In this document: positions 1,978 through 49,079 of the stretch, in pieces
Position numbering within the stretch: position 1 is the first letter of the stretch
How the letters are laid out: each line of letters opens with the position of its first letter
From: an uncultured Gammaproteobacteria bacterium
GTDB lineage: Bacteria; Patescibacteriota; Patescibacteriia; VMEV01; CAYQCH01
NCBI GenBank assembly: GCA_964503955.1
Contig: CAZDCG010000001.1
Coordinates: forward strand, 237,804-301,803
Direction of reading: 5' to 3'
Length of the DNA: 64,000 nt
Made by a program: the position numbers and the translations under genes
Notes under the pieces: generated by a model
Database searches by the model: none
Told to the model about the DNA's origin: nothing
What the model saw: only the letters and a program-made list of their open reading frames with translations

Positions 1978-2328
1978 ATGAGTGAAGTCAATAATTCGCT
2001 TGAAAATACCAAAGCGCAGATGCGCAAAGGCACCCTGGAATTTTGCATTCTGCTCATTATCGCGGCAGGCAAAAAAATGTACGCCTCAGATATTTTGAAA
2101 GAACTGAAAAAGGCCCAGCTTATCGTGGTGGAAGGCACGCTCTACCCCCTGCTCAACCGGCTGAAACGCGAAGGGCTGCTTGATTATGAATGGATCGAGT
2201 CAAAGAACGGCCCTCCTCGCAAGTATTACGTCGTTACTGCTAACGGGCATAAAATGATCGCTCAGCTTATTGACACCTGGAAATCCCTCAATAAATCCAT
2301 CAATTCGCTCATGAAACAATATGAATAA
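1978..2328 (+). CDS. PadR family transcriptional regulator
   Basis: Winged-helix PadR signature (LEFCILLII...YASDILKELKK...VEGTLYPLLNRLKREGLLDYEW...PRKYYVVT). The ORF-track start at 1945 is TTG inside the promoter, so the first ATG (1978) was chosen. Confidence 0.8.
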   Translation: MSEVNNSLENTKAQMRKGTLEFCILLIIAAGKKMYASDILKELKKAQLIVVEGTLYPLLNRLKREGLLDYEWIESKNGPPRKYYVVTANGHKMIAQLIDTWKSLNKSINSLMKQYE

Positions 2329-4147
2329 GACGATTAGCATCACAATCAGCGGGCAGCTCTTCCACATCGAGGAAGAAGCCTACAAACGATTAGACGAATA
2401 TTTGCGCTCTATCCGCCAGCATTTTTCCACGTTTGAAGGCCACGAAGAAATCGTTGCCGACATTGAAGCGCGCATCGCCGAACACTTTGAGGAACGCTTA
2501 ACCGGCAAACAAGTACTCTCCGTCGCCGATGTTGATGACTTGATCTTAAATATGGGCACGGTCAACGATTTTGCCGAGTTTGAAGGCGAAGGCGGCAAAC
2601 AAGACCGCGAGGAGGAACGCAAACGAACAAAAAAACTCTACCGTGATCCGGATGACAAAATCTTGGGCGGTGTTGCCGCCGGTTTGGCAGCCTACTTTGG
2701 CCTTGATACGACCTTGGTGCGTCTGATCTTTGTGGTTGCGGTTTTAACAGGCGGCTGGGGAATCCTCTTGTATCTGATCCTCTGGATTGTCACCCCTGAG
2801 GCAAGCACCACCGCAGAAAAGGCGCATATGCGCGGCGAACCCGTGACGCTTTCTTCGATAGAACAGAAAATCCGCTCCGCCATGCCTAAACGAGACGGCG
2901 CAGATAACGGCCTTAAAAAAAAATTGGTTGAACCGCCGCTGAATCTGATTGCGCGCCTATTCAACTGGATCGCGGAAGTTATCCGTGTCATCGTCCCGTT
3001 CATCGGCAAAGTTATCGGCTTCTGTGTCACGCTCGGGGCCTCCATCGCTCTATTCTTTCTCACCTTCGGCTTTATCACCTTCATGGTGAACGCCGATTCG
3101 CAGTATGTCGATTTTCCGCTGCAATCAATTGTGGCGCCCACGGTGTTTTATGCCGTCAGCATTGCCGGCTTGATCGCCGTATTTGTGCCGCTGCTATTTA
3201 TCCTGCTGGTCGGTTCTTCCCTGCTAAAAGGGAGAAGCGCATTTTCCACCACGGTGGTCGGCAGTCTGATCGCGTTATGGATCACGGCCTTGATGGTTGG
3301 CGGCGTTACGGCATTCTCTGTCGCGCCAGAATACCGTGAAAAGTGGCTGGCGCAGGAATCAACACGCGTAGAGACGGATAAGCTGTTTGAAATAACGGAG
3401 TTTAACAACATTGAACTGTCCAATGGCTTTCGCGTGAACGTACAACAAGGTGATGCTTTTGCCGTCAGCGCGTCAGGCGACATGGAAGAACTCGACCACC
3501 TGCGCATCTTTGTGGAAAATGGCGTACTGCGAGCTGAACGAGAGGCATTTGATCGCCCATGGAGGCTCTGCTTCTTCTGCTTCCGTAACCGCCAGGTGAC
3601 GCTAGATGTGACCGCACCAACCCTGCAGGGTATCAGTGCGGAAAACGGAACATCTATCCGTGCAGAAGGATTTACGTTAGAAGCATTAACGCTTTCGGCA
3701 CGCAATGGTTCTCGCCTTGAAGTAATCGCCGATGCAACAACGATTGATGCCGATGTCAGTTCAGGCTCGCGGCTGATCCTGAACGGAAACAGTGAACAGG
3801 CTGACTTGCGTCTGAGCAATGGATCACGCATCGAATGGACTGGTGGCGTAAACCGCGTCAAGACTGATATCAGCAGCGCTTCCCGTCTGATCCTTGAAGG
3901 AACGGGCAATGACCTGAACGCGAAAGTTTATAACGGCTCCGTATTGGACGCCATCGATTTTATCTCCCAAACCGCAACGGTGAATGCAAGCTCGGCCAGT
4001 TCCGCGCATGTGCATGCCACAACCAAACTTGATCTTCGCGCAACCAATGGCAGCCGCATTGACTATGCTGATACCGGCATCGTACCAACAAAAGAAGTTT
4101 CTACCGGCAGCCGCATCCAGGTAATTGGAGGAGAGTATTACGAATAG
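2321..4147 (+). CDS. PspC-domain membrane protein with C-terminal DUF4097/DUF2807 beta-helical (putative adhesin, YvlB/LiaG-like) repeats
   Basis: PspC motif (KKLYRDPDDKILGGVAAGLAAYFGLDTTLVRLIFVVAVLTGGWGILLYLILWIV), several TM helices, then repeated NGS(R)(I/L) beta-strand motifs. Its ATG overlaps the padR stop by 8 nt. Confidence 0.75.
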   Translation: MNKTISITISGQLFHIEEEAYKRLDEYLRSIRQHFSTFEGHEEIVADIEARIAEHFEERLTGKQVLSVADVDDLILNMGTVNDFAEFEGEGGKQDREEERKRTKKLYRDPDDKILGGVAAGLAAYFGLDTTLVRLIFVVAVLTGGWGILLYLILWIVTPEASTTAEKAHMRGEPVTLSSIEQKIRSAMPKRDGADNGLKKKLVEPPLNLIARLFNWIAEVIRVIVPFIGKVIGFCVTLGASIALFFLTFGFITFMVNADSQYVDFPLQSIVAPTVFYAVSIAGLIAVFVPLLFILLVGSSLLKGRSAFSTTVVGSLIALWITALMVGGVTAFSVAPEYREKWLAQESTRVETDKLFEITEFNNIELSNGFRVNVQQGDAFAVSASGDMEELDHLRIFVENGVLRAEREAFDRPWRLCFFCFRNRQVTLDVTAPTLQGISAENGTSIRAEGFTLEALTLSARNGSRLEVIADATTIDADVSSGSRLILNGNSEQADLRLSNGSRIEWTGGVNRVKTDISSASRLILEGTGNDLNAKVYNGSVLDAIDFISQTATVNASSASSAHVHATTKLDLRATNGSRIDYADTGIVPTKEVSTGSRIQVIGGEYYE

Positions 4148-15140: not shown

Positions 15141-16040
15141 TTACGTCAGCTCGTTAAGCAGACGCTGCAATTCTTCACGGGAATAAAAGTGAATAGTGAT
15201 TTGTCCTTTCTCGCCCGTTTTTTTGATTTGCACCTTGGTCCCGAGCCGCTCACGCAGCATTTCTTCCTGGGCTTCCCGCACAGGATCAAAGCTCATACCG
15301 GAATTGGTTCGCTGGTGTTTCCTTACCGCACGCGTCGCCTGCTCAAGATCGCGCACGCTCAATTTATTTGAAAGTGCTTCCTGGGCATATTTTTTCTGCT
15401 CCTCTGAAGAATCAAGACTGGCCAGAACCTTCGCATGCCCTAAGGACAGCTTGCCCTCAGACACGGCTGTCTGAATATCAGCCGGCAAATCAAGCAGGCG
15501 CAGGATATTGGCAACCGTAGAGCGGCTTTTTCCAAGCCGTTTGGATACTTCTTCCTGCGTGAGATTGAATTCAGACATCAGGCGCTGATACGCCTGCGCT
15601 TCTTCAAGAGGGTTCAGGTCGGCGCGCTGGACATTTTCCACGATTGCAAGCGCCATTTTATCGTGTTCGCTTGCTTCCCTTACGATCGCCGGAACTTTTT
15701 TTAATCCCGCAAGCTTTGACGCGCGCAGACGACGTTCGCCGGCAATCAGCACATGCTTGCCTTGCGCATCCGCAGGCATAACAACCAGAGGCTGAAGAAC
15801 ACCATGTTCTTTGATGGATGATGTTAATTCCTCAAGCGCATGATGATCAAAATGTTTTCGCGGCTGGTGCGGGTTTGGCAAAATAAGATCAAGCGACACC
15901 TGATGCACCTGGTCTTTTGGATCGATTTGCTGCTCTGCCGCAATGGATGCTGGAGCAGACGAAGACCGCGAAGCAGCCGCTTCTGCCGGCTTATTTGGAA
16001 TAAGTGCTCCTAGTCCTTTGCCTAATCCTTTCATTGCCAT
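15141..16040 (-). CDS. parB: chromosome partitioning protein ParB (Spo0J)
   Basis: The ParB N-terminal box (PNPHQPRKHFDHHALEELTSSIKEHGVLQPLVV...GERRLRA) and an HTH. Confidence 0.85.
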   Translation of the reverse strand: MAMKGLGKGLGALIPNKPAEAAASRSSSAPASIAAEQQIDPKDQVHQVSLDLILPNPHQPRKHFDHHALEELTSSIKEHGVLQPLVVMPADAQGKHVLIAGERRLRASKLAGLKKVPAIVREASEHDKMALAIVENVQRADLNPLEEAQAYQRLMSEFNLTQEEVSKRLGKSRSTVANILRLLDLPADIQTAVSEGKLSLGHAKVLASLDSSEEQKKYAQEALSNKLSVRDLEQATRAVRKHQRTNSGMSFDPVREAQEEMLRERLGTKVQIKKTGEKGQITIHFYSREELQRLLNELT

Positions 16041-16042
16041 AC

Positions 16043-16807
16043 TTAAAATTGATGCGCTAAAAATTCTCTCGCCAGCCGGTCATAGGCTTTCGCCCCCTTT
16101 GAACGCGCGTCATATGCGAAGATGGAAATGCCATGGCTTGGCGCTTCCGTCAGACGCACATTGCGTGGAATCGCCGTGCGGTATACGTAATACGGAAAAT
16201 GCTGATATAACTCTTCAAGCACCTGCTGGGAGAGGCGGTTGCGTTTATCAAACATGGTAATCACCGCGCCGCGGACTTTGAGCTCGGGCTTGAGGTGCTG
16301 CTGGACAAGGCTGACGGTCTGCAAAAGCTGCCCTAGCCCTTCCAGGGCATAATACTCGGACTGCACGGGAATAAGGACCTCGTCGGAAGCGACAAGCGCG
16401 TTGACCGTGAGCAAGCCCAGTGCCGGCGGACAGTCGATGAGTACATAATCGTAGTCATTTCGTATTTCAAGAATCTGGCGAGCCAGCTGGAATTCGCGCT
16501 GTTCCATATCCGCCATTTCCACCGAAGCCCCGGCCAGATCCAAATTCGCCGGAGCCAGTTTGTAGCCATGATGCGTTGTTTGCATAATGACATCTCGAAA
16601 GGATTTCTGCCCGATCAAAACTTCATACATGCCATGCGATAAATTCCGGTAATCCACGCCCAGGCCTGATGTTGCGTTTGCCTGCGGATCAAGGTCAATC
16701 AGCAAAACAAATTTTCCAAGAGCAGCCAAAGCGGCCCCAAGATTCACCGCGGTTGTAGTCTTACCCACCCCGCCTTTCTGATTGACAATAGAGATCACGC
16801 GTCCCAT
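16043..16807 (-). CDS. parA: chromosome partitioning ATPase ParA (Soj)
   Basis: Deviant Walker A (KGGVGKTT) and the ParA/MinD fold. Its stop abuts the parB start. Confidence 0.85.
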   Translation of the reverse strand: MGRVISIVNQKGGVGKTTTAVNLGAALAALGKFVLLIDLDPQANATSGLGVDYRNLSHGMYEVLIGQKSFRDVIMQTTHHGYKLAPANLDLAGASVEMADMEQREFQLARQILEIRNDYDYVLIDCPPALGLLTVNALVASDEVLIPVQSEYYALEGLGQLLQTVSLVQQHLKPELKVRGAVITMFDKRNRLSQQVLEELYQHFPYYVYRTAIPRNVRLTEAPSHGISIFAYDARSKGAKAYDRLAREFLAHQF

Positions 16808-20712: not shown

Positions 20713-22065
20713 TTATACCCCGGCTTGTCCGGTTCTGAAGAGGGACTTGAACCAGCCAAATACCCCGGCCGCCCCGTTCTGCTGGCGCCTGGAGCGCCTG
20801 GTCAGCAGATCCGTGATCATCTGATTGGGCGATGGCCGGCGGGCGGGATCCTTGGACATGGCCTGAGCGAGCACATCGCTGAATCCCTTCGTGACTCCGC
20901 CATTGGTGGCAAGAATCGCCGGCTTGGGATCCTTCGCCTTGATCAGGCTGATATGATCCTGCAGATTCATCCCCACAAGCGGAGGATGGCCGGTCACCAC
21001 ATGGTAGAGGGTCGCAGCCACGCCGTAGACATCCGTCTTGCTGTCTACGCGCGCGCCGTCAGCCTGTTCGGGAGCCATATAGTGCAAGGTTCCAAACCCT
21101 TCGCCTTCCTGCGTCAGGGTTTCAAGCACCTTCTCGGCATCCGCGTCTTGCAGCGAAGCCGCTTCCAGCAGACGGTACGGCGAAGGGCCGTCGGTCTTAT
21201 TGCAGCGGGCCTCGCCAAAGTCGATCAGGACGGCCTTGAGATTCTCCAGCAGGATCATGACATTGGCCGGCTTGATGTCGCGGTGGACGATCCCATGCTG
21301 CTCAGCCACCACGATGACCGTAAGCAGCTGGACGCCGATCTTGATAGCCGATTCCTCGGTCAGCGTCCTGCTTGCTTCAAGCACGCTCTTGAGCGGAATC
21401 CCCATGGCCTGCTGCTCGATCACAACGAGGCCGTACTCAGGATCCTCGATCAGCTCGTACACCTCGGGAACACTCTCAAGATTCGACAGCCTTCGCTGGA
21501 TCTCAAATGCCCGGCGCACGCGCCTTGCGGCCAGACGGCCGTCATCACTGTTCACCGAAGTCGCCGGCGTGAGCTTGAGAGCCACTTGCTTCTTGTGCTG
21601 CAGATCCTGAGCCGCGACCACGATGGAGTTGGCACCTGAACCAAGCAGCTCAAATACCCGAAAGCGGTCAAAAAGCACCGGCTTGCGCCCCATCTGAACG
21701 GTCCAACGCAACCGGGCATCATTGCAGGCATGCTTGAACGCATCCTCCGCAACTTTCCCCGACATCTGCAATGCGTCCGCCAACGGAACGGTATCCGCTT
21801 CATCCGACGTATCGGGCAGCAGCGTACCGTTGGACTTGAGAGCGGACAAGCGCCTTCTCCTCGAAGATGCCGACCTGGCCAGCCTGTCCGGCAGAACCAG
21901 CGTCATCCGCTCATCCACCGCGATCACCTTATTGCAGGTAATGCAGGTGAATGTCCTGGAATTAGGGTCGAGCTCCTGGCGGATTTGCAGCAGGGAATAG
22001 CTCTTCCCCTTGCAGGCGGGGCACCACTGGTATTGTGGCGGACCCGTCTCACTCTGAAGTTTCAC
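20713..22065 (-). CDS. cytoplasmic Ser/Thr protein kinase with N-terminal zinc-ribbon
   Basis: CPACKGK...CITCNK zinc ribbon, Hanks kinase motifs (VALKL, HRDIKPANVMI, DFGEA, APE). GTG start with a strong AGGAG ribosome-binding site. Confidence 0.8.
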   Translation of the reverse strand: MKLQSETGPPQYQWCPACKGKSYSLLQIRQELDPNSRTFTCITCNKVIAVDERMTLVLPDRLARSASSRRRRLSALKSNGTLLPDTSDEADTVPLADALQMSGKVAEDAFKHACNDARLRWTVQMGRKPVLFDRFRVFELLGSGANSIVVAAQDLQHKKQVALKLTPATSVNSDDGRLAARRVRRAFEIQRRLSNLESVPEVYELIEDPEYGLVVIEQQAMGIPLKSVLEASRTLTEESAIKIGVQLLTVIVVAEQHGIVHRDIKPANVMILLENLKAVLIDFGEARCNKTDGPSPYRLLEAASLQDADAEKVLETLTQEGEGFGTLHYMAPEQADGARVDSKTDVYGVAATLYHVVTGHPPLVGMNLQDHISLIKAKDPKPAILATNGGVTKGFSDVLAQAMSKDPARRPSPNQMITDLLTRRSRRQQNGAAGVFGWFKSLFRTGQAGV

Positions 22066-22843: not shown

Positions 22844-24991
22844 TTACGGAATCGAGGGCGCGGCCGGCAGGGTGATATTCCCTGTGACCGGATCAATGAC
22901 CAGGATGAATCCGCGATGCGGATCATGGTCATCATAGTTGTGGTTGCGCCCCGGCTCGTTCAGCGGCTGTGCCGGAGGATTCCCCGGATTATCGTCGCCG
23001 TCGAGCTTGAACCACAACAGGTGCTCCCCAAGGTCAATGCGGATGCGGACCGTGGCATGAAGGAGCTTGCCCGTGCCATAGTCCTGTGCGAGCGTCATCG
23101 ACGTACCCAGGTAATAGGCCGCCGGCGCGCCCGTATTGATCGGGTTGCGGAAAACGAATGGCTGCCAGCCCGCCTGAACGGTATTGCTTGTCGCAATCCA
23201 GGAATCCGGACAGTCGAGCAGCACATCCAGGTCCACCTCCGTCGCGCTCACGGACGTGACCGCCGCGATGGCGAACAGGCCCGGTCCCTGGTGGATGGTG
23301 CCGGTGACATCATCCACCTGAACCGAGTGCTGGCGGTAGCCCGGGAAGTCAACGAAACGGTTGCGTCTGAACACCTGAAGGTTTTTCTGCGGGCTGATGC
23401 CCTGCAAACCGCCGGGATCGGCCGCCACCGCGTCGAAGACGAAGAACGAAGGCTGCGAAGCCACGTCTTGGCTGACAAAGACATTGAAGGTGAACGAAGT
23501 GACATTGCCGATCGTTGCCGATGTCACCAGCGAGATCGTTGCCTGTTCACCCGCCAGCCTCGTCAGCGCGCAAGTCAGCGGATCGCCATTGTCATCCTGG
23601 AAGGCCACCTGCACCACCGCGGTTGTGAGCGCGGCAATCGTGGTGGAACTTGACGCAAGACCGGAGACGACCGTTGCCACATGAATCGGGGCCACGGGTG
23701 TGGGAACATGCGTCGTGAGGTTCACGGTCACCTGGCTGGTGGCCGTACTTCCGCGGCTGTCGCTTGCCGTCACGGTAAAGGTGATCGGCTGGTCGCTTGC
23801 AACCGCGGGCGTGCTAACCACGGTGGCCGCGGACGCTGGGTGAGCAATGCTTGCCGCCACGCCTGACGTCTGCGACCAGATATAGGAGATGCTCCCCTTC
23901 CCGCCGCTTACCGTCACCGAGAGGGTCGTTGAACCGCCGCCCTGCAGGGTCGAAGGAGAAGCCGCGGCCGCCGTGATTGACACGGGAGGCGTTGGCGTAA
24001 CCGTTACCTGTACGGGATTGCTGGTAATCGACTTGCTCTGATCGGTCACGGTCACCGTGAACTGCATGTCCTGGCTCGTAGCCGAAGCCGGAGCCGTCAC
24101 GGTTGTCTGCGCCACCTGCGGGCTCGCGATCTGAGCGGCCGGACCGGCAACCTGCGTCCACTGGTATGACACGGCACCGTTTGCACCGGCGGCCTGCGCC
24201 TGCAGCGTGAATGTCTGCTCCTCCTCCACGCTGCTTGGCGACGCATTCGCGCTGGTAATAGACAGTGTTGAAGGAGGCTGAGGCAAGGTCGAAGCCGGCT
24301 GAGGCGGCGCGGACGCGCCTGCATAAGGCGGCACGTAGGTATGCCAGTTGCCGTCGCTGCCAATCGCCACCCAGAGCCTGAGCTCCTTGGGCGGATCCTG
24401 GTACGACGAATCAAACGGCAGGCCCGTGAAGTAGTGGGCCGGATTGCTTGAGCCGGCCGCGGTGACAGGGTTGGTCTTATACAGGGTGATATGCATCCCC
24501 TGCGCCACGGGAACCTTGATCGTCCCGCGCCAGCCATTTCCGCCCGAAGGCATGAGCTGCACCGCGTCGAAGTTGCCCACGACCGGCGCATTCATCTTCA
24601 CCCATACCTCCGAGAGGGCGTTGTGGTTGTCGTCAAACGCCGCGTTGACCACCACGTCCACCAGCATCTGGTTGGGATCATTGGGATCAGGCCGGGGATC
24701 GGAGTACGCCACCACGCCCGGCCCGACAGCATTGCCGCCGGCCGTATCCAGGCGCCTGGTGACCACCACGACTTGCTGCCCGCTGAATGCGGGCGTCGTC
24801 TTGATCAGGTCGGCATCGGATGGCTGGTTTGTGCCGCTCGGCTGGTTCTGACCGCCGTTATTGCCCGTGGGCTGGTTCCCCTGCCCGTTGAGCACCGGCG
24901 AACCGGAGCTGCGCTTCTCCGAACAGCCAGACGAGACAATCCCCGTCATGAGGATCGCCGCCATCATCAGGATCCAATTGAACCAAGGCAT
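22844..24991 (-). CDS. secreted lipoprotein with two PKD/Ig-like repeats and low-complexity N-region
   Basis: Signal peptide plus lipobox-like VSSGC. Two ~60-aa repeats SYQWTQVAGP...FTVTVTDQSKSITSNPVQVTV and SYIWSQTSGV...FTVTASDSRGSTATSQVTV. The start was moved to the ATG with the GGGGGAGG ribosome-binding site. Confidence 0.65.
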   Translation of the reverse strand: MPWFNWILMMAAILMTGIVSSGCSEKRSSGSPVLNGQGNQPTGNNGGQNQPSGTNQPSDADLIKTTPAFSGQQVVVVTRRLDTAGGNAVGPGVVAYSDPRPDPNDPNQMLVDVVVNAAFDDNHNALSEVWVKMNAPVVGNFDAVQLMPSGGNGWRGTIKVPVAQGMHITLYKTNPVTAAGSSNPAHYFTGLPFDSSYQDPPKELRLWVAIGSDGNWHTYVPPYAGASAPPQPASTLPQPPSTLSITSANASPSSVEEEQTFTLQAQAAGANGAVSYQWTQVAGPAAQIASPQVAQTTVTAPASATSQDMQFTVTVTDQSKSITSNPVQVTVTPTPPVSITAAAASPSTLQGGGSTTLSVTVSGGKGSISYIWSQTSGVAASIAHPASAATVVSTPAVASDQPITFTVTASDSRGSTATSQVTVNLTTHVPTPVAPIHVATVVSGLASSSTTIAALTTAVVQVAFQDDNGDPLTCALTRLAGEQATISLVTSATIGNVTSFTFNVFVSQDVASQPSFFVFDAVAADPGGLQGISPQKNLQVFRRNRFVDFPGYRQHSVQVDDVTGTIHQGPGLFAIAAVTSVSATEVDLDVLLDCPDSWIATSNTVQAGWQPFVFRNPINTGAPAAYYLGTSMTLAQDYGTGKLLHATVRIRIDLGEHLLWFKLDGDDNPGNPPAQPLNEPGRNHNYDDHDPHRGFILVIDPVTGNITLPAAPSIP

Positions 24992-25031
24992 GACACCTCC
25001 CCCTGTGAGACGTTTCCTGTTTTTTGTTAAG

Positions 25032-25056
25032 ATCATCCTTATGAAATAAGGATCAT
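25032..25056. promoter_or_regulatory. palindrome GATC-ATCCTTAT-gaa-ATAAGGAT-CATC between promoter and RBS of the PKD lipoprotein gene
   Basis: Perfect 8-bp inverted arms. A TTGACA -35-like hexamer lies upstream on the minus strand (25083-25088). Confidence 0.4.
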
Positions 25057-25107
25057 CCAGAATAAAAAGAATTGTTGTTTTTGTCAAGCCAGGTGAGCGT
25101 CATTTTT

Positions 25108-25136
25108 CGACAAAAAAGCGGCCTTTCGGCCGCTTT
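25108..25136 (-). terminator. terminator immediately after the A2M-like anti-sigma gene
   Basis: AAGCGGCC-tttc-GGCCGCTT hairpin with a T-run on the minus strand, 3 nt after the stop. Confidence 0.6.
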
Positions 25137-25138
25137 CT

Positions 25139-28100
25139 CTATTCGTTTATTTCAATGCGCTGCCTTGGCGTTCTCAATGCAACAGCTTCATGTTCGCCTC
25201 CTGTCACCGAAACTCCTTCTGCAACATAACTGCCCCCTTCGGCAACCGCCATGGCACGGTAACGAACGGTGTAGGAACTGCATTCAGGTCCAAGCCAGAT
25301 ATGCGCGTTCATGCGCCCTTCAGAGAGCCGATACGGTGCCGTGGTACAACGCTGGCCTGCTGTGTCATGCATCCACGACAATCCTCTCCACCGCCCTTGC
25401 AGTCCGCTTGGCAAAATGTCTTCCACTAGATACCCGCCGCCAAATTGAGGATTTTTCAGGCTGACAACAATTTCCACCTCCACCGGCAACGAAGGATCAA
25501 TAGACTCAACGATCCTTCCATTCTGTCGATACATGCGCGAAGCACTGATCATGGATGAATCAACCGCATCCGTGAACGGGATCTCATAGGCGGCTGTCGC
25601 ATAGAGGGGGCCTTGAACATCCTCCAGGGAAAGCTGCTGATAATCATCACGGCTCAAGCTTAAGGTAAAGCTTTCATATCCCCGCAAGGTGACAAAACGT
25701 TCTTCCTCGCCTGCACGAACGACAAAGCGCATATCTGCCACCGGCTGATGCGCAAGCTGCGCTTTCCAGTAGCGCACGAGTGCAGCCGGATCCATTTTGT
25801 CTGATTGCGCGAGAAGATAGGCATAGAACAATTCCGCACGCGCATCCTGCAATTGTGCTGCGACCAACATGGCTAATTCTGTCTGCGCGCGAATTTCTAA
25901 CGTTTCCGCATCCTCTGCTGTAATCCATGCCCGGCCGTCCTCTTCCTGATACCCAAGATCAATAGCACGAGCAAAGAGTGACCGCGCTGTCTGCACATCT
26001 CCATAAAGCAGGAGTGCGTCAGCCGCGGTCAATATAGTTTGCACATTCAAATCGTCACGATGTGCGAATTGCTGCAATTGAGCAAGACCGGGCTTCTGTA
26101 AAGCAGCCAATCCCCTGAATGCAAGGGCTGTTTCCTCAAGGGTTCGGTCCTCGTCACTGAGCACTGACGCGAAGTAGACAGCCATTTCTTCAGGTGCGTA
26201 TTCCTGATCATCAAGCAATGGCAGTAAAGCAGATGTCCGCTCAAGGTCAGCCTCGCCGAATGGATAAAGCGTGAATCCTCCGTTCGGTACTTTATACGGT
26301 GTTGTAACAGCCGTTTCCGCCGTCGCATGATCCACGCCAAAGTACTGCTTCAGTAATCCGGCTGCTGCGTCCTGAGCCACACGCCCGTCAAGGCGGGTTC
26401 CATATGCAGAGAATCCTGTCAGCATGCGATACGCATCCGCTCCAATCGATGACGAGAACGAAACATCAATACGCTTTGCTTCTTCAGGTACCTGGGGCAA
26501 CCCCTCTTGCGCCGGTTTGGCAACGGCTTCTCGTCTGGTCGCGTAACTGTCGCGAACCATAAACGACTTGATCACGATATCCTGGCGTTCCTGCGCTGTT
26601 GCTCTTATGGCGTATGCGTACAAACCCGGTTTCAATTGCCCGATAGCAAACTGAGGGTGTTCGGTTAAACGAACCGTTTGCAGCTGATCGGCGACCGGAA
26701 AATCCGCAAGCGAAGACGGCACGGCTTCAACCGCCAGCGGGCCGTAAAAAGCATATTGCACGTCATCATCGGCATGAAGGAAATCCGCATAGCTGCGGGC
26801 GGAAAGCACAATCGAATCCTCCGCCAAGTATTGATCGTTGGCAATCACTTCCACCTGCAAAGGCTGCGCGACTACCACGTCTTTGATCCCAAGCCCGCCT
26901 TTTCTGTCGGATGTGGCGGCTTTTGCAAGGATCGCCCAGGTCGTGACATTATCCGGCAAACGGAACGAAATGCGGGCATAGCCATTGGCATCCGTTTGCA
27001 CGATTTCATAATGCGCGAGTTCAAGGAATTCAGAGCGCACGTCACCGCCGCCGCCACCGCCTCCTTCAAACAGATACGGCGGATGATGCGTGGCTGCCTG
27101 CTGGCGCAGACGATGATACTGCCCAGACCACAATTCCGTCAGAGGATTTTCCGCGGCCGCATACTGGTCAAGTTCCAGATAAGCCCGATCAAGCACGCTG
27201 ATATTTACCTCCGCGCGGACAGGCTTGCCCTGCGCGTCCTTCACCTGGATTTCAGCGTTCACCTCGTCTCCCCTGCCATAAGCATCCGCGCCGGTTTGCA
27301 CGTTTACATCAAGGCGATACGGCTCCTGATCCACCGTGACCGAATCGAGAAAGAACGGATAGGTATAGTAGATTCTGCCATCAATAAGCGCCGCTCCTGC
27401 AAGCGTGAATGAAGGGCGATGTCTGTCTTCAATAAGGAAATCAGCCGTTGCCCCGCGCGTAACTTTGTACCCTTCAATCGAAGGAGCAAGCGCGTACACG
27501 AAGAAAAGCGTGTCTTCAGAAATATTGATGGCCGCGTCCTGCCAGGAATTGAGCTTGGCCTGCAATTTCACAATATCCCCCACCTGGAATCCATCTTCAG
27601 CTTTTTCATGAGAAATCGTCAGATGCGGCTGATAATGCGGCGGGGTCGCGACCTGCACGGGGATTTCTTCATCCGGATTCTCTACATACACCCTGCCATA
27701 AGGCAATTCATAGAACGAAATGTACTCTGTCTGACTGTCGTAGCGTTCAAATGCATCCATGGCTTCAAAGCGGATTTCGTAATTTCGCTCAGGCTGAGGA
27801 GTGAAGGTGAAATGTGTTCGTCCTTGCTCGTCCGTTAATCCCTCATGACGGTCAACAACCTGCTCCTTGCGGGTATATTCGTAGTAATATCTGGTGGTAT
27901 TCGTGTACTCGTCATATTCAGACATCAAAGCAGAAGAAAGCTCGGAGCTGATTTCCACCACCGTCGCGCGGAATGGCACTCCTGCCGCATGGAAGCGCTG
28001 TATCTTATTTTGCGGAGGATACGGTTCGTCTGAGGTGAGATAGTTCAAGCCCTGGACATGCGCAGTAAAGAGTACGGAGCCGTCCTCAACTTCATGCGCC

Positions 28101-30412
28101 AAATCGAAATGCAGATATTCCTGGGTTGTCATCCATGAGACGGACGCAGCGATATCACTGCCAAGGGCCTCAACAGGCTCGGCGCTGAGCCATACCCATT
28201 CGTCAGAGCAGCCCCATTCCGCCAAACATTCACGAATCTCTGATGGATAAACAAATGATGCCATTCCGGCCCCATCCGTCTGAACTGTTGCCACCGTTTG
28301 CTCATCTTGGCGGACACGGAATTCCATGAACGCCGCTGGTTTGCCATCAAACAATGTCGCGCGCAAGGTTACGAAATTGTCCTCTCCGGCATCAACACGT
28401 TGTTTCTCCGGTTCCATCGAGAGGGCGATTTCAGGCGCGCTGAATTCACGCACATCAATGGATTTTGAAAAATGAGATTGCCCATTCACATTCACGTTCA
28501 ATGAATAATAGCCTTCTGCAAGATGCGTAAGGTCAAGATCGCCGGAAAAGAAACCCAAATCATTCACAGCCGGATGCTCTGAAGCAACAACCACCTGCCC
28601 GTTCCAAACAGAGTCGCGCCAGCCGACAAGCTCTATTTCAACTTCCGACGGCATTTCTCCGTCCTGGCGCTGAACAAATCCCCAATAGCGGACCGTATCA
28701 TCCGGATGGGCTAAATACTGATCCAGAGTAACAAACCCATTGTAAATCTCTCGCTGATCAAATCTTCCAAGACGGATCGGCAACGCAGACTGATACGCGC
28801 TCGTGCGGACAAACAAAACGGTCTGCTCCTGCATCATGGCGATTTGCTCCTGCGTCAGCTCGAGCACACCGTCCGCATTGGTCGTGCCAAGCAAGGTGTC
28901 AAACGCGTAAACGGATGCCTGTGCCAATGTTTCTCCTTTTTCCACGTCCACAGCCCAGACCAAACCGTCATTCTCGGTGATTGCCGCGTACATCCCTGCC
29001 GGTGAAACAATCCACGGCATGAGGTATAAACCGCCTCCCACCTCGATCGCCAGCAAGTAGACTCCTTCATTCGCGATCGGCCTTAATGCATAGAATGCCT
29101 GATACGAAGCACTTGATTGCGAAGCAAGCTCATACTGCTGCACAGGCGAAGCAAAATCTTGATCTTCAAGAAATTCCCTAAACAATTCAGACCGCAGCTG
29201 CGACGGAATCCAAGGCGCGATCGTTGAGATTTCCCGCAATACGGATTCTGTCATTTCTTCATTCAATGCGAATACCCGCACTTGCGCCACCGGCTGGCGG
29301 GCTGTGCCGTAATGATATCCGACAAGCTCTGCTCCTTGTCCCGGCTGTGATCCGAGCTGTTCTTCATGGAACCAAATCGCGCCTGAAGAAAGCGCCTCGT
29401 CATTGGTAGCAAATTGAATGACATAATCTTCCTGCAATTCCCAATGGCCTTCAGGCTCGTTTTCCGGGCGATATTCTTCCGCCACGCCAAAGCCGGCGCG
29501 CAGACGAACCGTGTAAACCGTATTCTTCTCCCATGGACGCTCCGGCACGATAATGAATGTTCGATACCCTTCTTCAATCTTGAACGGATGCGCCGGCTCA
29601 ATGCTCACATAATCAGCCGCATTTTTTGTATTGGTATGGCTCACGTTTATGCGAACCGCCGTGTCGACGGGAATATACGAGCTTTGATCAGCCGGTGTGC
29701 TGCCCATCACCTTGAAATGATCCTGAATCTCAAATGCCCATGCGTACTCATATGGATTAAGCCCTGACGCGTCCTGGACAAGGCTTGCGATACGGACCTG
29801 CGTGACACCGCCGCGCTCAAGCTGTTCTTCAGGTTCAATGCGGTACACTGTCCCGCGCTCAATGGTTTTGATCGAAAATGATGTTCCACCGAATGAGAGA
29901 AATGCTTTCAGATCACCGGCTGAAATGCTTGTTTTGCTTGTAAGAATGAAACTGCTATCCGGCCTGACCACTCCAAGCGCATCAACGGATTCAGGTTCAA
30001 GCGTGAAATTGTCATGCGCATGCGCAACAGGCAGCATAATCCCGCCGATCTGCCCCGGCTTATTCAAGCCAGGCAAAGCAGACGGGGTGTAATGCGTAAA
30101 CGCGATCACAAGCGCGATCGCCACCATCAGGACACCGGCCGCCGAGAATGATTTCACGTGAACGAGTTTGAATAAATGTTTTCTCTGCTTTTTCTTCTTC
30201 TCTTGCTGTTCAACCGCCTTGCGTAAAATTTTTCGGAGCAGCATGTCTTTAAATTCCATACGATAGGGTTTAACGTCATGACGAGAGGCAATCATTTTCT
30301 CAGCCATGCGCAAAGCATCCTGTTCTTCAGGACTGAGCTGTTTGCGCTCAGCGTCGGAAATCTGTTCGCCCCGCAAGAGCGCATCCATGAATTGTTGCAA
30401 ATGGCTATTCAT
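25139..30412 (-). CDS. 1757-aa single-pass membrane protein: N-terminal cytoplasmic anti-sigma-factor-like domain + TM + large extracytoplasmic alpha-2-macroglobulin (A2M/MG-domain) family region
   Basis: Start ATG overlaps the ECF sigma stop by 8 nt (TATGAATAG). ~84-aa N-domain, then TM AAGVLMVAIALVIAF. MG-like segments (LRATLFDGKPAAFMEFRVRQDEQTVATVQTDGAGMASFVYP). A2M hallmark ...VLDRAYLEL...DVRSEFLELAHYEIVQTDANGYARISFRLPDNVTTW (cf. RSxFPETWxW...PDSITTW). C-terminal GGYLVEDILPSGL receptor-binding-domain-like segment. No CxEQ thioester seen. Confidence 0.7.
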   Translation of the reverse strand: MNSHLQQFMDALLRGEQISDAERKQLSPEEQDALRMAEKMIASRHDVKPYRMEFKDMLLRKILRKAVEQQEKKKKQRKHLFKLVHVKSFSAAGVLMVAIALVIAFTHYTPSALPGLNKPGQIGGIMLPVAHAHDNFTLEPESVDALGVVRPDSSFILTSKTSISAGDLKAFLSFGGTSFSIKTIERGTVYRIEPEEQLERGGVTQVRIASLVQDASGLNPYEYAWAFEIQDHFKVMGSTPADQSSYIPVDTAVRINVSHTNTKNAADYVSIEPAHPFKIEEGYRTFIIVPERPWEKNTVYTVRLRAGFGVAEEYRPENEPEGHWELQEDYVIQFATNDEALSSGAIWFHEEQLGSQPGQGAELVGYHYGTARQPVAQVRVFALNEEMTESVLREISTIAPWIPSQLRSELFREFLEDQDFASPVQQYELASQSSASYQAFYALRPIANEGVYLLAIEVGGGLYLMPWIVSPAGMYAAITENDGLVWAVDVEKGETLAQASVYAFDTLLGTTNADGVLELTQEQIAMMQEQTVLFVRTSAYQSALPIRLGRFDQREIYNGFVTLDQYLAHPDDTVRYWGFVQRQDGEMPSEVEIELVGWRDSVWNGQVVVASEHPAVNDLGFFSGDLDLTHLAEGYYSLNVNVNGQSHFSKSIDVREFSAPEIALSMEPEKQRVDAGEDNFVTLRATLFDGKPAAFMEFRVRQDEQTVATVQTDGAGMASFVYPSEIRECLAEWGCSDEWVWLSAEPVEALGSDIAASVSWMTTQEYLHFDLAHEVEDGSVLFTAHVQGLNYLTSDEPYPPQNKIQRFHAAGVPFRATVVEISSELSSALMSEYDEYTNTTRYYYEYTRKEQVVDRHEGLTDEQGRTHFTFTPQPERNYEIRFEAMDAFERYDSQTEYISFYELPYGRVYVENPDEEIPVQVATPPHYQPHLTISHEKAEDGFQVGDIVKLQAKLNSWQDAAINISEDTLFFVYALAPSIEGYKVTRGATADFLIEDRHRPSFTLAGAALIDGRIYYTYPFFLDSVTVDQEPYRLDVNVQTGADAYGRGDEVNAEIQVKDAQGKPVRAEVNISVLDRAYLELDQYAAAENPLTELWSGQYHRLRQQAATHHPPYLFEGGGGGGGDVRSEFLELAHYEIVQTDANGYARISFRLPDNVTTWAILAKAATSDRKGGLGIKDVVVAQPLQVEVIANDQYLAEDSIVLSARSYADFLHADDDVQYAFYGPLAVEAVPSSLADFPVADQLQTVRLTEHPQFAIGQLKPGLYAYAIRATAQERQDIVIKSFMVRDSYATRREAVAKPAQEGLPQVPEEAKRIDVSFSSSIGADAYRMLTGFSAYGTRLDGRVAQDAAAGLLKQYFGVDHATAETAVTTPYKVPNGGFTLYPFGEADLERTSALLPLLDDQEYAPEEMAVYFASVLSDEDRTLEETALAFRGLAALQKPGLAQLQQFAHRDDLNVQTILTAADALLLYGDVQTARSLFARAIDLGYQEEDGRAWITAEDAETLEIRAQTELAMLVAAQLQDARAELFYAYLLAQSDKMDPAALVRYWKAQLAHQPVADMRFVVRAGEEERFVTLRGYESFTLSLSRDDYQQLSLEDVQGPLYATAAYEIPFTDAVDSSMISASRMYRQNGRIVESIDPSLPVEVEIVVSLKNPQFGGGYLVEDILPSGLQGRWRGLSWMHDTAGQRCTTAPYRLSEGRMNAHIWLGPECSSYTVRYRAMAVAEGGSYVAEGVSVTGGEHEAVALRTPRQRIEINE

Positions 30413-31055
30413 ATGATTGTTCAGCGGCTTTCGCGTAGAGTTTTTTCAATCCGCGGTGAATGCGCACGGAAACGGCATTAGGCGTCAGCTCTACGATGGA
30501 AGAAATCTCTTTTACCGAGAGTTCGGCAAAGAATCGCAGCTCAATAATTTTGCGGTCTGTCTTTGAAAGCGAAGAAAGCAGCAATAAGACTTCTTCTTTT
30601 CTTTCTGCGCTGATCACTTCCTGATGCGCGCCGGCTGAAGTATCGGGACGCTCCGGCAGCACATCGGTGGCATACTCGTTCTTCGTGGAGGATTTCCGAT
30701 AATAATCCGTCAAAAGATTTGCAGCGATACGATATACCCAGGCCCCGAACGGCGCGCCGGTAATTTGAAAGCGGGGCAGCTTTTCAAAGGCTTTCAGAAA
30801 AACCTGCGAAGTCAGGTCTTCGGTTGTTTGTTCATGTCCGCAGCGGCGGTAAATATACCGGTAAATCAGCGGGAAATAGTGATGATAAAGCTTCGTGAAT
30901 GCCTGTTCATCGCCGCGTTTTGCTTTTTTAACAAGCTCTTTTTCTCCGGCAAGCGTCTCATGAGTCTGATTGGCTGAAGCCATGGCAAAAAAACGGAGCG
31001 ACTCCCGGAAAAAACCTCCTGCAAATTGTCCAATAAGATCAGCCAAAAGCGTCAT
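30405..31055 (-). CDS. ECF (sigma-70 family group 4) RNA polymerase sigma factor
   Basis: Region 2 (EQAFTKLYHHYFPLIYRYIYRRCGHEQTTEDLTSQVFLKAFEKL) and region 4 (LSSLSKTDRKIIELRFFAELSVKEISSIVELTPNAVSVRIHRGLKKL). The true start may be the internal ATG at 30983. Confidence 0.8.
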   Translation of the reverse strand: MTLLADLIGQFAGGFFRESLRFFAMASANQTHETLAGEKELVKKAKRGDEQAFTKLYHHYFPLIYRYIYRRCGHEQTTEDLTSQVFLKAFEKLPRFQITGAPFGAWVYRIAANLLTDYYRKSSTKNEYATDVLPERPDTSAGAHQEVISAERKEEVLLLLSSLSKTDRKIIELRFFAELSVKEISSIVELTPNAVSVRIHRGLKKLYAKAAEQSYE

Positions 31056-31201
31056 AAAACCGGTTCTATAGAGAAAAACGGCAATGGTTTCTCTATCTTA
31101 CATGAGCGGGTGCTTTTTCTCCATTTCCTGTACAGCAGCTCAAAGCGTGCCTGAGCAGGGATATTCTTGTATACTTTTAAGAGATTCTTAACGTTACTCA
31201 T

Positions 31202-46513: not shown

Positions 46514-48844
46514 TTACCGTGCTTCACGGACGATGCGCAAGCCTTCGCAAGCTTGCTCGTACTGATCACGATACCCGGCAAAATTCTTGTCGGACAGGTG
46601 CTTGCTGCATTCGTCCAGCTGCACCTCAGCAAGATCGGCGTACCGGGCTCGCCGCTCTCCCTGTTCAAAGGCTCCCATGTCCAGCAGGCTTTGCGCATGG
46701 CGCAGATCGATGAGCGGTGCGCCAGGCTTGAGCACTTGAAGGCGCTCAAGATCCTGGATGGCCGCCGTGGTATGCGCACGTGCCTCAGCCATCAGGTTAT
46801 TCCTTGTAAGAATTGCCTGATTTCGTTCGCCGCCCTGGGGCATGCGATTGATCTGCTGCGCGAGCTGTGATGCCGTTGTCACGCACTTGATAGCCAGGAG
46901 CCTGCGAATCTCCGCACGATGCTGAAGCACCATATGGAAGTTCGGATTCTGAGCGGCCGCCGCGAGCACGAAGTCGAGCGCCCGTTCGGGGTCGAGCGTG
47001 CTCATCAGCGCAGCCAAGGTGTACTTCTGCACCCATGAAGACCATTCGCGGCGAGCGAGTTCTCCGGCAAGCTGAACGAAGTGATTCTGCAGCCGCTCCG
47101 CTTCCTCGTTGAACCCGTCCCGCAAAACGACGGTCTGCGTCTGGTAGTAGATACCAACCGCGCGTCCGATACTTGCCGTCGGTTCTTCAAGCCGATCGAT
47201 AATCGAGTCGATCACCGGCCGCTCGGAGATGAAGACCTCGCTTCCCTCTCGGGTATAGGCCTCCACAGCGAGCAGCGCCTGCAAAAGATAGTCCTGACGC
47301 GTCTGGCCTTCGCTCTGCTCGGCCAGCCAGTCGTAGACCTCCACCACGCGAGGATCCTCGAGAATCGTGAGAGCCTCCGCCAGCAGAACATGCGCCTGCC
47401 GGTGCTCAGGATCAAGCTCCAGCGCGGCGAACAGCTCGTCGCGTGCCTGCTCCCACTGTGCGTAACGCGTGGCAAGATAGGCCTCGGACAGATGGCGTGA
47501 AAGACGGTTCTGACGGTTTTCCGTCTCAATCCGCGCTTCAGCCTCCTGCTTGGCCTGCGATTCCGCCTTGGCAAGCGCCTCGGCGGTGCGCCGCTTCTGA
47601 GACGCGACGATAGCCAGCAAACCAAGCAGCACCGAGATCACTGCGACAATAGCGAACAGAATCAGCATGAACTTCGCCCGCAGGCTTTGCTTGGCCGCAA
47701 AAGCGTTCAGTTCAATGCGTGTCTGCACATCAGCCTGGCGCTCCGCCTCGAAATGGGCTTCAAGATCGGCCAGCATTTCTCCCGCGTGGGCATGACGCCC
47801 TGCAGGATCATGCGAAAGACCTTTCTCCAACAGAGCGCGAATCGCAGGCGGGACGGAGAATTTCTCGATCTCCGCGAACTCCGCCGGCAGGCCGGGCTTG
47901 AGTATGGCTTCAAAGACTCCCATGGCCGTAGCCGGCGAACCGTGAAGCTTCACGCCCGTGATCAGCTCAAAGCCGATTTTGGCCAGCGCGTATACGTCGG
48001 TTCCGGGCGTGGTTGAATCGGAATTCACCTGTTCAGGCGCCATGTAGACCGGCGTTCCAAGCAAGGAGCCGTCTTCCGTGAGGCGCTGGCCAAGCTTATT
48101 GCCGCCCACAAGCCCCAGATCCATGACCACGCAGTCGCCATCGGCCTTGCGGACCATGATATTGGCCGGCTTGAGATCGCGGTGAACCAGCTCCGCCTTG
48201 TGAATCGCTTTCACACCCTTGAGCACGGAGCGGAACATGGACAGAGCCTGTTCAAGCGGGAGTCCTCCGGGGCGGATGATCTGCTTGAGATCCAGCCCCT
48301 CGATGTACTCCATGATGATCGCCTGATCGCTTCCCTCGTTGACCACCTGGAAGATGGTCACGACATTGGGGTGGCGGATCGCCGCCATGGCAGCGGCTTC
48401 ACGCATGAAGCGCAGGCGGGTTTCAAGGTCGACCGCGCCATCAAGACAAAGCTTGATCACTTCCCTGCGCTTGAGGCTGCGATTCTGGGCGAGGTAAACC
48501 ACTCCCATGGCGCCGCGCCCAAGCTCGTTCTCGATCTGGTGAGTCCTGCTCAGAAACCCCGTGTGCTGAGGCTCCCTGATTCCGGACTGGCTCTTGGCCG
48601 GCCCCGCAGCCGTTTCGTCCATGGAGCCAGCCGACTTCCACTGCGCGAGAAGGCCGGGCACTGCCTGCGCAGGCAGCCGTCCCAATCTCACGAGTTCAGC
48701 CAGCACCTGCTCAGGACTGCTGAAATTGTGCTGCGCGAAGTAGGTTTCCGCGCTCGCCGAGAGAGTCATCCCTCGAGACCGCAGAAACTGCAAAAACGTC
48801 CGCATGCTTCCCCCTTGCCCCGGATCGGGGCGATGATTGCTCAT
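46514..48844 (-). CDS. membrane Ser/Thr protein kinase with extracytoplasmic helical-repeat (TPR-like) sensor region
   Basis: Hanks motifs (GRGAMGVVYLA, HRDLKPANIMV, DLGLV, APE), a TM at FMLILFAIVAVISVLLGLLAIVA, and ~380 aa of helical repeats. The start is uncertain (48874/48844/48805); the track start is TTG. Confidence 0.8.
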   Translation of the reverse strand: MSNHRPDPGQGGSMRTFLQFLRSRGMTLSASAETYFAQHNFSSPEQVLAELVRLGRLPAQAVPGLLAQWKSAGSMDETAAGPAKSQSGIREPQHTGFLSRTHQIENELGRGAMGVVYLAQNRSLKRREVIKLCLDGAVDLETRLRFMREAAAMAAIRHPNVVTIFQVVNEGSDQAIIMEYIEGLDLKQIIRPGGLPLEQALSMFRSVLKGVKAIHKAELVHRDLKPANIMVRKADGDCVVMDLGLVGGNKLGQRLTEDGSLLGTPVYMAPEQVNSDSTTPGTDVYALAKIGFELITGVKLHGSPATAMGVFEAILKPGLPAEFAEIEKFSVPPAIRALLEKGLSHDPAGRHAHAGEMLADLEAHFEAERQADVQTRIELNAFAAKQSLRAKFMLILFAIVAVISVLLGLLAIVASQKRRTAEALAKAESQAKQEAEARIETENRQNRLSRHLSEAYLATRYAQWEQARDELFAALELDPEHRQAHVLLAEALTILEDPRVVEVYDWLAEQSEGQTRQDYLLQALLAVEAYTREGSEVFISERPVIDSIIDRLEEPTASIGRAVGIYYQTQTVVLRDGFNEEAERLQNHFVQLAGELARREWSSWVQKYTLAALMSTLDPERALDFVLAAAAQNPNFHMVLQHRAEIRRLLAIKCVTTASQLAQQINRMPQGGERNQAILTRNNLMAEARAHTTAAIQDLERLQVLKPGAPLIDLRHAQSLLDMGAFEQGERRARYADLAEVQLDECSKHLSDKNFAGYRDQYEQACEGLRIVREAR

Positions 48845-49079
48845 AGCCCCCTCGGAAAACGAAGGAAGAGTCATAAACAAGAACAACCGCGAACCATTCG
48901 CGGCCGCTCTTTATACCACAAAAGGAGCTTTATATCAAGCCCCACGTTATGATTGAACCAGCTAGATTAGCGAGACCAATCACAACCACATTGTCGAGCG
49001 CGGGGATCCCGTCCCCGCCCGAGGAGCGGCCCCAGCCTTTCAAGAGCCTCCATTCGGGCAGTCATGATATGATTTAGAC

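Follow-up and report, generated by a model that had tools for sequence, protein, structure and literature searches.

The DNA analysed here is a stretch of 64 000 nucleotides (hereafter the window) from contig CAZDCG010000001.1 of an uncultured bacterium. It carries, on the minus strand, a pair of overlapping genes for an extracytoplasmic function (ECF) sigma factor and for a membrane protein of 1757 amino acids (aa). The initial annotation of the window had read the second product as a giant anti-sigma-like protein with a sensor related to alpha-2-macroglobulins (A2Ms). Both open reading frames (ORFs) were found intact at the coordinates that it gave. The large protein is composed of a short cytoplasmic N-terminal domain (N-domain), a transmembrane (TM) helix and an ectodomain with the A2M fold, and its pairing with a sigma factor is conserved in distant relatives. 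The features of the locus are listed below; MG denotes macroglobulin-type domains, BRD the bait-region domain and pLDDT the per-residue confidence of the AlphaFold2 (AF2) models.

31077–31102, minus strand: candidate autoregulatory promoter of ECF type, TGTAAG-N16-CGTT(TT), lying some 20 nt upstream of the start codon of the sigma gene.
30405–31055, minus strand: gene of the ECF (group 4) sigma factor, 216 aa, with Pfam, TIGRFAM and PDB matches.
25139–30412, minus strand: gene of the 1757-aa membrane protein (N-domain, TM helix, A2M-fold ectodomain), an ORF with homologues P0002 and P0003.
30161–30412, minus strand: cytoplasmic N-domain, putative anti-sigma (residues 1–84), hydrophilic, with predicted helices at 3–13, 20–23, 28–43 and 52–81.
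30089–30148, minus strand: single TM helix (residues 89–108) from the Kyte–Doolittle profile; modelled helix 92–106.
30005–30034, minus strand: juxtamembrane motif LPVAHA↓HDNF (residues 127–136), conserved in relatives, with a signal-peptidase-like A-x-A as candidate site-1.
29480–29716, minus strand: bacterial Ig-like Big_5 domain (residues 233–311), Pfam PF13205, 38.6 bits against a cut-off of 23.6.
28238–28738, minus strand: MG2-like and bMG3-like domains (residues 559–725), Pfam matches under the cut-offs, beta-sandwiches with pLDDT of about 80–90.
27029–27121, minus strand: bait-region-like flexible loop (residues 1098–1128), pLDDT 25–41, between the BRD-like and A2M domains.
26846–27004, minus strand: core of the A2M (MG7) domain (residues 1137–1189) with LPDNVTTW within, from Pfam PF00207 and motif alignment.
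25751–26449, minus strand: all-helical thioester-domain-like domain (residues 1322–1554) without a thioester; helices 765–997 of the fragment model, pLDDT mostly 80–96.
25142–25735, minus strand: C-terminal beta-sandwich region (residues 1560–1757), similar to MG8 and the receptor-binding domain (RBD), from the model strands.
25112–25133, minus strand: intrinsic terminator GCGGCC-GAAA-GGCCGC-TTTTTT, read from the sequence, directly after the stop codon of the large gene.

The start of the large gene and the stop codon of the sigma gene share 8 nt, ATGAATAG; at the junction one frame reads CAA TCA TAT GAA TAG and the other ATG AAT AGC. Coordinates and junction sequence thus agree on the overlap described in the initial annotation. 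The public gene calls of the identical large protein start at Met9, which hides the overlap (30389–30412, minus strand) and leaves a protein of 1749 aa and a gap of 16 nt. Met1 with the overlap is the better reading, because residues 5–13 are conserved in relatives: LQQFMDALL aligns with FQQIVDTLL and LQQLIDKLL of proteins that are 37–40% identical over the N-domain. The spacing between the two genes in relatives ranges from −14 to +14 nt. The unit had also been credited with a terminator of its own, and a hairpin followed by T6 is indeed present at 25112–25133; the terminator scan did not call it, but it is plain by eye in the sequence. Sharing 8 nt and followed at once by a terminator, the two genes form a compact and self-contained operon that is probably autoregulated.

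Upstream of the sigma gene, the motif TTGTAA(G/T)A-N15-CGTT(T/G)T is conserved between the window and the related loci L001, L048 and L050, whose sigma factors are 53–66% identical. It has the general form of an ECF promoter, so that autoregulation is plausible on the basis of this pattern. The operon's own site is the single match of TGTAA-N16-18-CGTT in the 64-kb window (about 0.67 expected by chance), and no further targets of this form were found there.

The first gene of the operon codes for an ECF (group 4) sigma factor. Its product matches Pfam Sigma70_r2 (7e-17) and Sigma70_r4_2 (2.5e-13) with no match to r3, and scores 103.8 bits with TIGR02937 (cut-off 42.9). Among subfamily models, the BldN-like TIGR02952 fits best (1e-41, under that model's cut-off). 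The nearest PDB sequences are 6dxo_A (1.2e-20), which we take to be the BldN–RsbN complex, and SigW, 5wuq (1.5e-18); the PDB relatives are ECF sigma factors. BldN and SigW both work under single-pass anti-sigma factors. Homologues of 216–218 aa cover 95–100% of the window sigma factor, and this full coverage together with the intact gene rules out a sigma pseudogene.

The topology of the large protein is that proposed initially: helix prediction and the one hydrophobic stretch at 89–108 give a cytoplasmic N-domain of about 84 aa, one TM helix and about 1650 residues outside the cell. Kyte–Doolittle windows above 1.6 cluster at start positions 83–95, with one isolated window at 451. The segment 108–133, following the TM helix, is disordered in the model. 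About 25–30 residues past the TM helix, many members of the family have in common the motif (L/I)IxPA[YH]A[QH]DNF. Searched with a loose regular expression among the family representatives described below, the A-x-A motif was present in 58 of the 95 that bear an N-domain, compared with 7 of the 49 that do not. By analogy with RsiP (PMC8844934), the A-x-A at residues 130–132 could be a site-1 cleavage position; it could equally be the start or first strand of the ectodomain, or its enrichment a sampling effect.

On sequence, profile and predicted fold, the outside part of the protein is a true A2M homologue that lacks the thioester. The comparison with the Pfam A2M and MG families that the initial annotation had suggested gave a match to A2M (PF00207) at residues 1137–1189 with 29.3 bits, over the cut-off of 21, and matches to MG2 and bMG3 below theirs. 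The family A2M_BRD is absent from the Pfam matches of the window protein and present in those of P0002 and other relatives, and relatives also match bMG10 in the C-terminal beta region. Just upstream of the A2M core lies VRSEFLELAHYE (residues 1125–1136), and the block VRSEFLELAHYE...TDANGYA...LPDNVTTW matches, in every column, VRxxFxxxAxW...TDxxGxA...LPDxLTxW of 15 ordinary bacterial A2Ms. P0002 (40% identity) and P0003 (24%) are full-length homologues, and a profile built from these two and the window protein finds ordinary bacterial A2Ms with E-values from 2.7e-46 to about 1e-10. Searched by sequence against the PDB, the full-length protein matched TEP1 only (E about 1), and the homology needed a profile or a structure to be seen.

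The AF2 model of residues 558–1757 (pLDDT 78.7, predicted TM-score 0.64) contains, in this order, a run of beta-sandwiches, a helix, a disordered loop, the A2M domain with a further beta domain, a helical thioester-domain-like (TED-like) domain and a C-terminal beta region. The model of residues 1–557, of moderate confidence as a whole (pLDDT 63.7), was left out of the fold search. Foldseek returned 340 PDB matches at E ≤ 1e-3 for the 558–1757 model, and the top 50 are all entries of the A2M/complement family. The best are E. coli ECAM (5a42, E 4.3e-47, TMq 0.56) and Salmonella A2M (4u48, 7e-46), both matched over the full length of the model; C4, CD109, A2ML1, C5, TEP1 and C3 come next. The A2M hallmarks noticed in the initial annotation are thus borne out by the Pfam score, the aligned motif block and the structural match to ECAM.

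The loop at residues 1098–1128 is the only long stretch of low confidence in the modelled A2M core. Inside it lies a tract of seven glycines (G7; residues 1117–1123, nt 27044–27064), which the initial annotation had pointed out just before the A2M block. The tract is where it was said to be, but it is not special: the ordinary A2Ms P0005, P0006 and P0020 have Gly-rich tracts in the same alignment column, and a particular role for the poly-Gly itself was dropped for this reason. The absence of a thioester noted initially is confirmed. No CxEQ was found anywhere in the large protein, which has just four cysteines in total, and FSAY-GTRLD (residues 1334–1342) fills the columns where other A2Ms have YPYGCxEQ. 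Thioester-less members of the A2M superfamily are known, MagD and C5 among them, and the missing thioester therefore does not exclude membership.

Conservation of the pairing was studied in 47 related loci, taken from public assemblies (L001–L003), a genome collection (L004–L006) and metagenomes (L007–L047); the window's own locus is represented a second time by L003. An ECF sigma gene lies directly upstream of the A2M-like gene, on the same strand, in 20 of the 47 loci, one of them L003, so that the adjacency is found in 19 independent loci besides that of the window. The loci are distributed as follows.

First TM helix at residue 46–117, with a cytoplasmic N-domain: 20 loci, sigma upstream in 20 of 20.
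TM helix within the first 37 residues and at least 1.1 kb of upstream DNA: 16 loci, sigma upstream in 0 of 16.
N-terminal tail of 49–91 aa: 6 loci, sigma upstream in 0 of 6.
At a contig end or without usable upstream DNA: 5 loci, not scorable.

The presence of the N-domain tracks that of the sigma factor (Fisher's exact test on 20/6 versus 0/16, p = 4.8e-7). In the 16 signal-anchor loci, a broad sigma hidden Markov model (HMM) run with filters off found no sigma-like ORF at E ≤ 1. The locus L006 (6040–7800), from the Patescibacteria single-amplified genome AM-311-L03, and 15 other loci have paralogous or orthologous forms of the same ectodomain with a signal anchor only and no sigma gene. Among the six tail-bearing loci without sigma, L010 is the only one with a convincingly helical tail; L011, L022 and L042–L044 have N-terminal tails of 49–63 aa.

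Reciprocal searches gave the same picture. Directly after each of the sigma homologues with 60, 66, 45 and 40% identity comes the gene of an A2M-domain protein of 1754–1862 aa; behind a more distant one (36%), whose genomic setting differs, lies the gene of a 100-aa protein that is not A2M-like. A survey of ECF sigma neighbourhoods for A2M partners, which had been put forward with the initial annotation, therefore finds the pairing conserved from either gene, in 20 of 47 loci and in four more cases from the sigma side. It is kept down to 21–26% identity of the large protein and 40% of the sigma factor, in different phyla. In a neighbour-joining tree of the ectodomains (rough, with no support values) the sigma-coupled and uncoupled forms are interleaved, a hint that the N-terminal module may have been gained or lost more than once.

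The zf-HC2 domain is the classical zinc-binding domain of anti-sigma factors. Its motif HxxxCxxC occurs in the N-domain at eight loci (L002, L004, L031, L032, L037, L040, L046 and L047), two of which are metagenome-assembled genomes (MAGs) of Chloroflexota, and P0003 passes the Pfam zf-HC2 threshold (22.4 bits against 22.2). The window N-domain has neither the zinc motif nor a zf-HC2 match, so that the only sequence test for class I of the anti-sigma factors is negative. Its comparison with Pfam and NCBIfam gave nothing relevant at E ≤ 10, and a Pfam scan of 27 related N-domains revealed no shared family. The N-domain profile found only chance matches (E ≥ 0.4) among all PDB sequences. Aligned by hhalign, 74 N-domains of the window type and the eight zf-HC2-type N-domains of relatives gave a probability of 0.4%. 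With no motif, no Pfam match and this hhalign result, we do not class the window N-domain as a zf-HC2 or class I domain, and, as far as its sequence goes, it is not to be filed in a known anti-sigma family. The canonical sigma/anti-sigma arrangement claimed in the initial annotation thus holds for gene order, topology, conservation and the zf-HC2 domain of distant members; it does not extend to a family match of the window N-domain itself. From context and topology, we consider it very probable that this domain works as an anti-sigma domain.

The family to which the large protein belongs is extensive. A HMMER search with residues 1–1200 against representatives of 50% identity clusters gave 533 matches at E ≤ 1e-30, 1812 at ≤ 1e-10 and 4023 at ≤ 1e-3, the tail of which must include ordinary A2Ms. 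In the best 148 long matches, the first TM helix begins after residue 40 in 95 and earlier in 49. CxEQ is present in one of these 148 closest representatives, and the thioester has thus been lost throughout the family. Named relatives include a Patescibacteria single-cell genome, Chloroflexota MAGs and 'bacterium CG10_46_32'.

Of the 148 closest representatives, 57 contain a Hint domain of 129 aa (46 of the 95 with an N-domain and 9 of the 49 without). In members of about 1850 aa it scores 34–50 bits with Pfam PT-HINT, against a cut-off of 27.7. The domain is inserted within the Gly tract of the bait-position loop, in the form AEGG-G↓CFLxGTxIxMADG...HTYIAxGxYVHN↓(D/E)KGG..VRxxF. Cys is its first residue in 62 of 63 cases, and in 55 of 62 its His-Asn is followed by D (40), E (9) or Q (6). 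Hint-bearing relatives are found at L051 (7579–13122), L053 (5404–10992), L014, L019, L022, L024, L028 and L041 and include the proteins P0029–P0035 and P0040. The window protein has no Hint domain, and its G7 tract (27044–27064) represents the empty site.

Without Cys, Ser or Thr at position +1, classical intein splicing is not expected. Self-cleavage at one or both Hint junctions is expected instead, by analogy with bacterial intein-like (BIL) domains. Chain breakage at the bait-position loop may be a recurring theme of the family; for the window protein the Hint domain of relatives proves nothing, yet it singles out the loop as a site where breakage matters in the family. A more speculative extension, which we regard as rather unlikely, is that in about 40% of relatives a self-cleaving Hint domain has taken the place of the bait loop, and that its N-terminal thioester intermediate could stand in for the lost CxEQ, either for covalent capture or as a conditional cleavage switch. 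In this reading the A2M-fold bait protein would itself be the anti-sigma factor, and cutting of the bait would free the ECF sigma factor in a surface-damage circuit widespread in uncultivated bacteria (Patescibacteria-like, Chloroflexota and others). No paper dealing with Hint or BIL domains together with macroglobulins was found in the literature searched. Like known BIL and PT-HINT domains, the Hint domain of these relatives has a Cys at position 1 and a terminal His-Asn, and, as in BIL domains, the next residue is mostly not a nucleophile; unlike them, it sits in an A2M bait loop and not ahead of a toxin module.

Comparison with known A2Ms places the window ectodomain closest to ECAM/YfhM and Salmonella A2M, its best structural matches. 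They have in common, in this order, the MG domains, the bait-position loop, the A2M/MG7 domain with LPDxxTxW, the helical TED-like domain and the C-terminal beta region, and both types are anchored in the cytoplasmic membrane by the N-terminus and face outward. Unlike ECAM/YfhM, the window protein has no thioester, its TM helix stands behind an 84-aa cytoplasmic domain with no lipobox, and it has in addition an N-terminal Big_5 region and the coupling to an ECF sigma factor. No transglycosylase or transpeptidase that could correspond to the pbpC (penicillin-binding protein 1c, PBP1c) neighbour of ECAM/YfhM was seen among the genes annotated in part of the window. The absence of lipobox, thioester and, in the part annotated, pbpC neighbour rules out the ECAM/YfhM type. 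The MagD/YfaS-type A2Ms, like the window protein, have the A2M fold without CxEQ; they differ from it in their Mag/Yfa multi-gene operon, whereas the neighbours here are a PKD-domain protein, a Ser/Thr kinase and tRNA genes, and in the lack of a cytoplasmic N-domain and sigma partner. The resemblance to MagD suggested in the initial annotation is therefore limited to the missing thioester, and without a Mag operon, membership of that system is ruled out.

From the side of the anti-sigma factors, the large protein shows the general features of a TM anti-sigma factor: it is encoded downstream of an ECF sigma gene with an 8-nt overlap, crosses the membrane once and has its N-terminus inside. The order of a sigma factor and then a single-pass protein with an N-domain that is cytoplasmic, short and helical is shared with class I zf-HC2-type anti-sigma factors (RsiW, RslA, ChrR type) and with RsbN–BldN, and distant family members (P0003, L004, L031 and others) also have HxxxCxxC. 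Unlike class I factors, the window protein has an ectodomain about ten times larger than usual and an N-domain without this motif.

Autoproteolysis is known for FecR and FoxR. Known anti-sigma factors that are switched on when their outer part is cut include RsiP, with signal peptidase acting at site 1, and RsgI, through autoproteolysis (PMC8844934, PMC10328401). The proposed logic for the window system is the same as in these four proteins, namely an extracytoplasmic break, cleavage at site 2 and release of the sigma factor, and the counterparts in the present family would be the juxtamembrane A-x-A motif and the Hint domain of relatives. None of the four has an A2M-fold sensor or a Hint domain, and cleavage in the present family is a proposal. 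In a predatory bacterium of the candidate phyla radiation (CPR), large membrane proteins with A2M domains were discussed as a possible defence against proteases, with no link to sigma factors (PMC8080830). A full-text literature search found no paper that links anti-sigma factors with macroglobulin domains, in agreement with the initial view that known bacterial A2Ms are not coupled to sigma factors, and macroglobulin domains do not come up in the main text of the paper on ECF reclassification.

From the observed pairing and its conservation, the topology, the A2M fold, the flexible loop and the lack of a thioester, we infer the following sequence of events, in which binding of sigma, the trigger by proteolysis, the sites of cleavage and the regulon are conjectural. 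The short helical N-domain would, as its context suggests, hold the sigma factor against the cytoplasmic side of the membrane, the remainder of the protein being displayed outside the cell as a thioester-less A2M-fold module. If proteases damaged the exposed ectodomain, in all likelihood at the Gly-rich loop 1098–1128, this would change or remove it and thereby expose the juxtamembrane segment, where the conserved A-x-A at residues 130–132 is a candidate site-1. Regulated intramembrane proteolysis would come next and set the sigma factor free. Free sigma would transcribe its own operon from the TGTAA-N17-CGTT promoter, replacing the surface protein that had been consumed, and might perhaps turn on further envelope genes. 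We give this complete protease-triggered scheme slightly less than an even chance of being right.

Several observations weigh against it. As there is no thioester, covalent trapping as in ECAM is excluded. The window N-domain is similar to no anti-sigma family by sequence or profile comparison, and it is modelled with moderate confidence only (pLDDT 51–74). Enrichment of the A-x-A motif may come from phylogenetic sampling. The promoter motif is short, and its single match in the window is close to the chance expectation, which makes it weak evidence when taken alone. At L010 (1848–7133), a 90-aa helical N-domain is encoded without an adjacent sigma gene, the upstream gene coding for a 479-aa secreted protein; either the sigma gene of L010 lies at a different place or N-domains of this type serve another purpose.

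There are also rival explanations. The A2M-fold ectodomain might sense an input other than a protease, such as contact with a host or partner cell, a cell-wall fragment or a macromolecular ligand, so that binding by the MG, TED-like or RBD-like domains frees the sigma factor. Complement components, TEP1 and CD109 act by binding partners besides being cut. The family-wide loss of the thioester would fit such a function, as would the distribution of the family in Patescibacteria and Chloroflexota, the paralogues without an N-domain, which are plain surface proteins, and the treatment of the large A2M-domain membrane proteins of the CPR predator as part of a host-interaction surface proteome (PMC8080830). 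However, the loop at the bait position is conserved as a flexible Gly-rich segment, the autoproteolytic-type Hint domain that many relatives have in this loop points to breakage of the chain there, and no ligand-binding motif was identified. We consider ligand sensing, which keeps the sigma/anti-sigma logic, unlikely, though it is the main rival. A different view is that the N-domain is not an anti-sigma domain at all: the sigma factor would be a dedicated activator of a giant surface or protective protein, co-transcribed with it for stoichiometry, and the N-domain would act in membrane insertion, in localization or otherwise. This would explain why the window type is homologous to no anti-sigma family detectably, why L010 has a helical N-domain without an adjacent sigma gene and why L011, L022 and L042–L044 have tails and no sigma. 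It is difficult to reconcile with the strict association of sigma and N-domain over 20 loci and its absence beside signal-anchored forms, with the HxxxCxxC domain found at the same position in eight loci and passing zf-HC2 in P0003, and with a gene order and topology that are standard for ECF sigma and anti-sigma factors; we regard it as improbable.

That the adjacency is coincidental, or that one of the genes has decayed so that there is no functional unit, is an explanation to which we attach hardly any weight. Its sole and weak point of support is the public Met9 start, which removes the overlap. Both ORFs are intact, the pairing is conserved across phyla and conservation upstream of Met9 supports Met1; coincidence and pseudogene alike are refuted by the comparative data.

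The remainder of the window is ordinary chromosome, with genes for topoisomerase I, DprA, RelA/SpoT and ParAB, nine scattered tRNAs and many genes that belong to no family. The tRNA genes are all single and extend over 16964–52887, ParA/ParB are at 15141–16807, and many ORFs have no Pfam family, which fits a small and poorly characterized genome. Directly downstream of the operon, at 22844–25087 (minus strand), is the gene of a protein of about 715–747 aa with K319L-like PKD domains and a promoter-like site of its own. It is followed by a Ser/Thr protein kinase gene at 20713–22065 (minus strand); a kinase gene also follows the pair in L048–L050, and a second one lies in the window at 46514–48886. 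In some relatives, the pair is adjoined by a Peptidase_S11 (PBP5-type DD-carboxypeptidase) gene: L048 (14010–14918), L049 (11718–12578), L050 (14194–15099) and L053 (1963–2877). No such gene was seen beside the pair in the window. An association of A2M with PBP1c is known in Proteobacteria, and the Peptidase_S11 neighbour of the relatives recalls it. Two further genes may be related to the cell envelope. At 2321–4147 (plus strand), a 608-aa membrane protein of envelope-stress type has a PspC domain together with a membrane region of the PspC/LiaF type and a DUF2807 domain similar to adhesin heads. At 61055–62536 (minus strand), a 493-aa protein with SH3_3 and CAP (cysteine-rich secretory protein) domains is likely to be secreted or exposed at the surface.

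Pairs of ECF sigma and anti-sigma factors are the third major mode of signal transduction in bacteria, and for most of them the input signal is not known. Here the best-understood function of the sensor fold, a protease cut followed by a change of shape, provides a concrete and testable hypothesis for the signal. The ECF sigma factor and the A2M superfamily are themselves well known; what seems new is their combination in a probable sigma/anti-sigma system whose sensor fold and N-domain family are both novel. The family is large, about two thirds of its closest 148 representatives having a cytoplasmic N-domain, and its members are concentrated in little-studied lineages whose giant surface proteins are believed to take part in interactions with other cells.

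If the protease-triggered scheme is true, the A2M/complement scaffold has been recruited for transmembrane signalling in bacteria and a new family of anti-sigma N-domains is defined, while the Hint-bearing relatives would tie intein-like autoprocessing to A2M biology and to the control of sigma factors. Should the thioester intermediate of the Hint domains act in place of CxEQ as suggested, both the chemistry, for the A2M/complement superfamily, and the type of trigger, for sigma/anti-sigma systems, would be new. If the scheme fails, the locus is still a conserved, sigma-dependent expression unit of a major surface protein. The recurrence of the pairing in dozens of uncultivated bacteria suggests an undescribed way of sensing attack on the cell surface.

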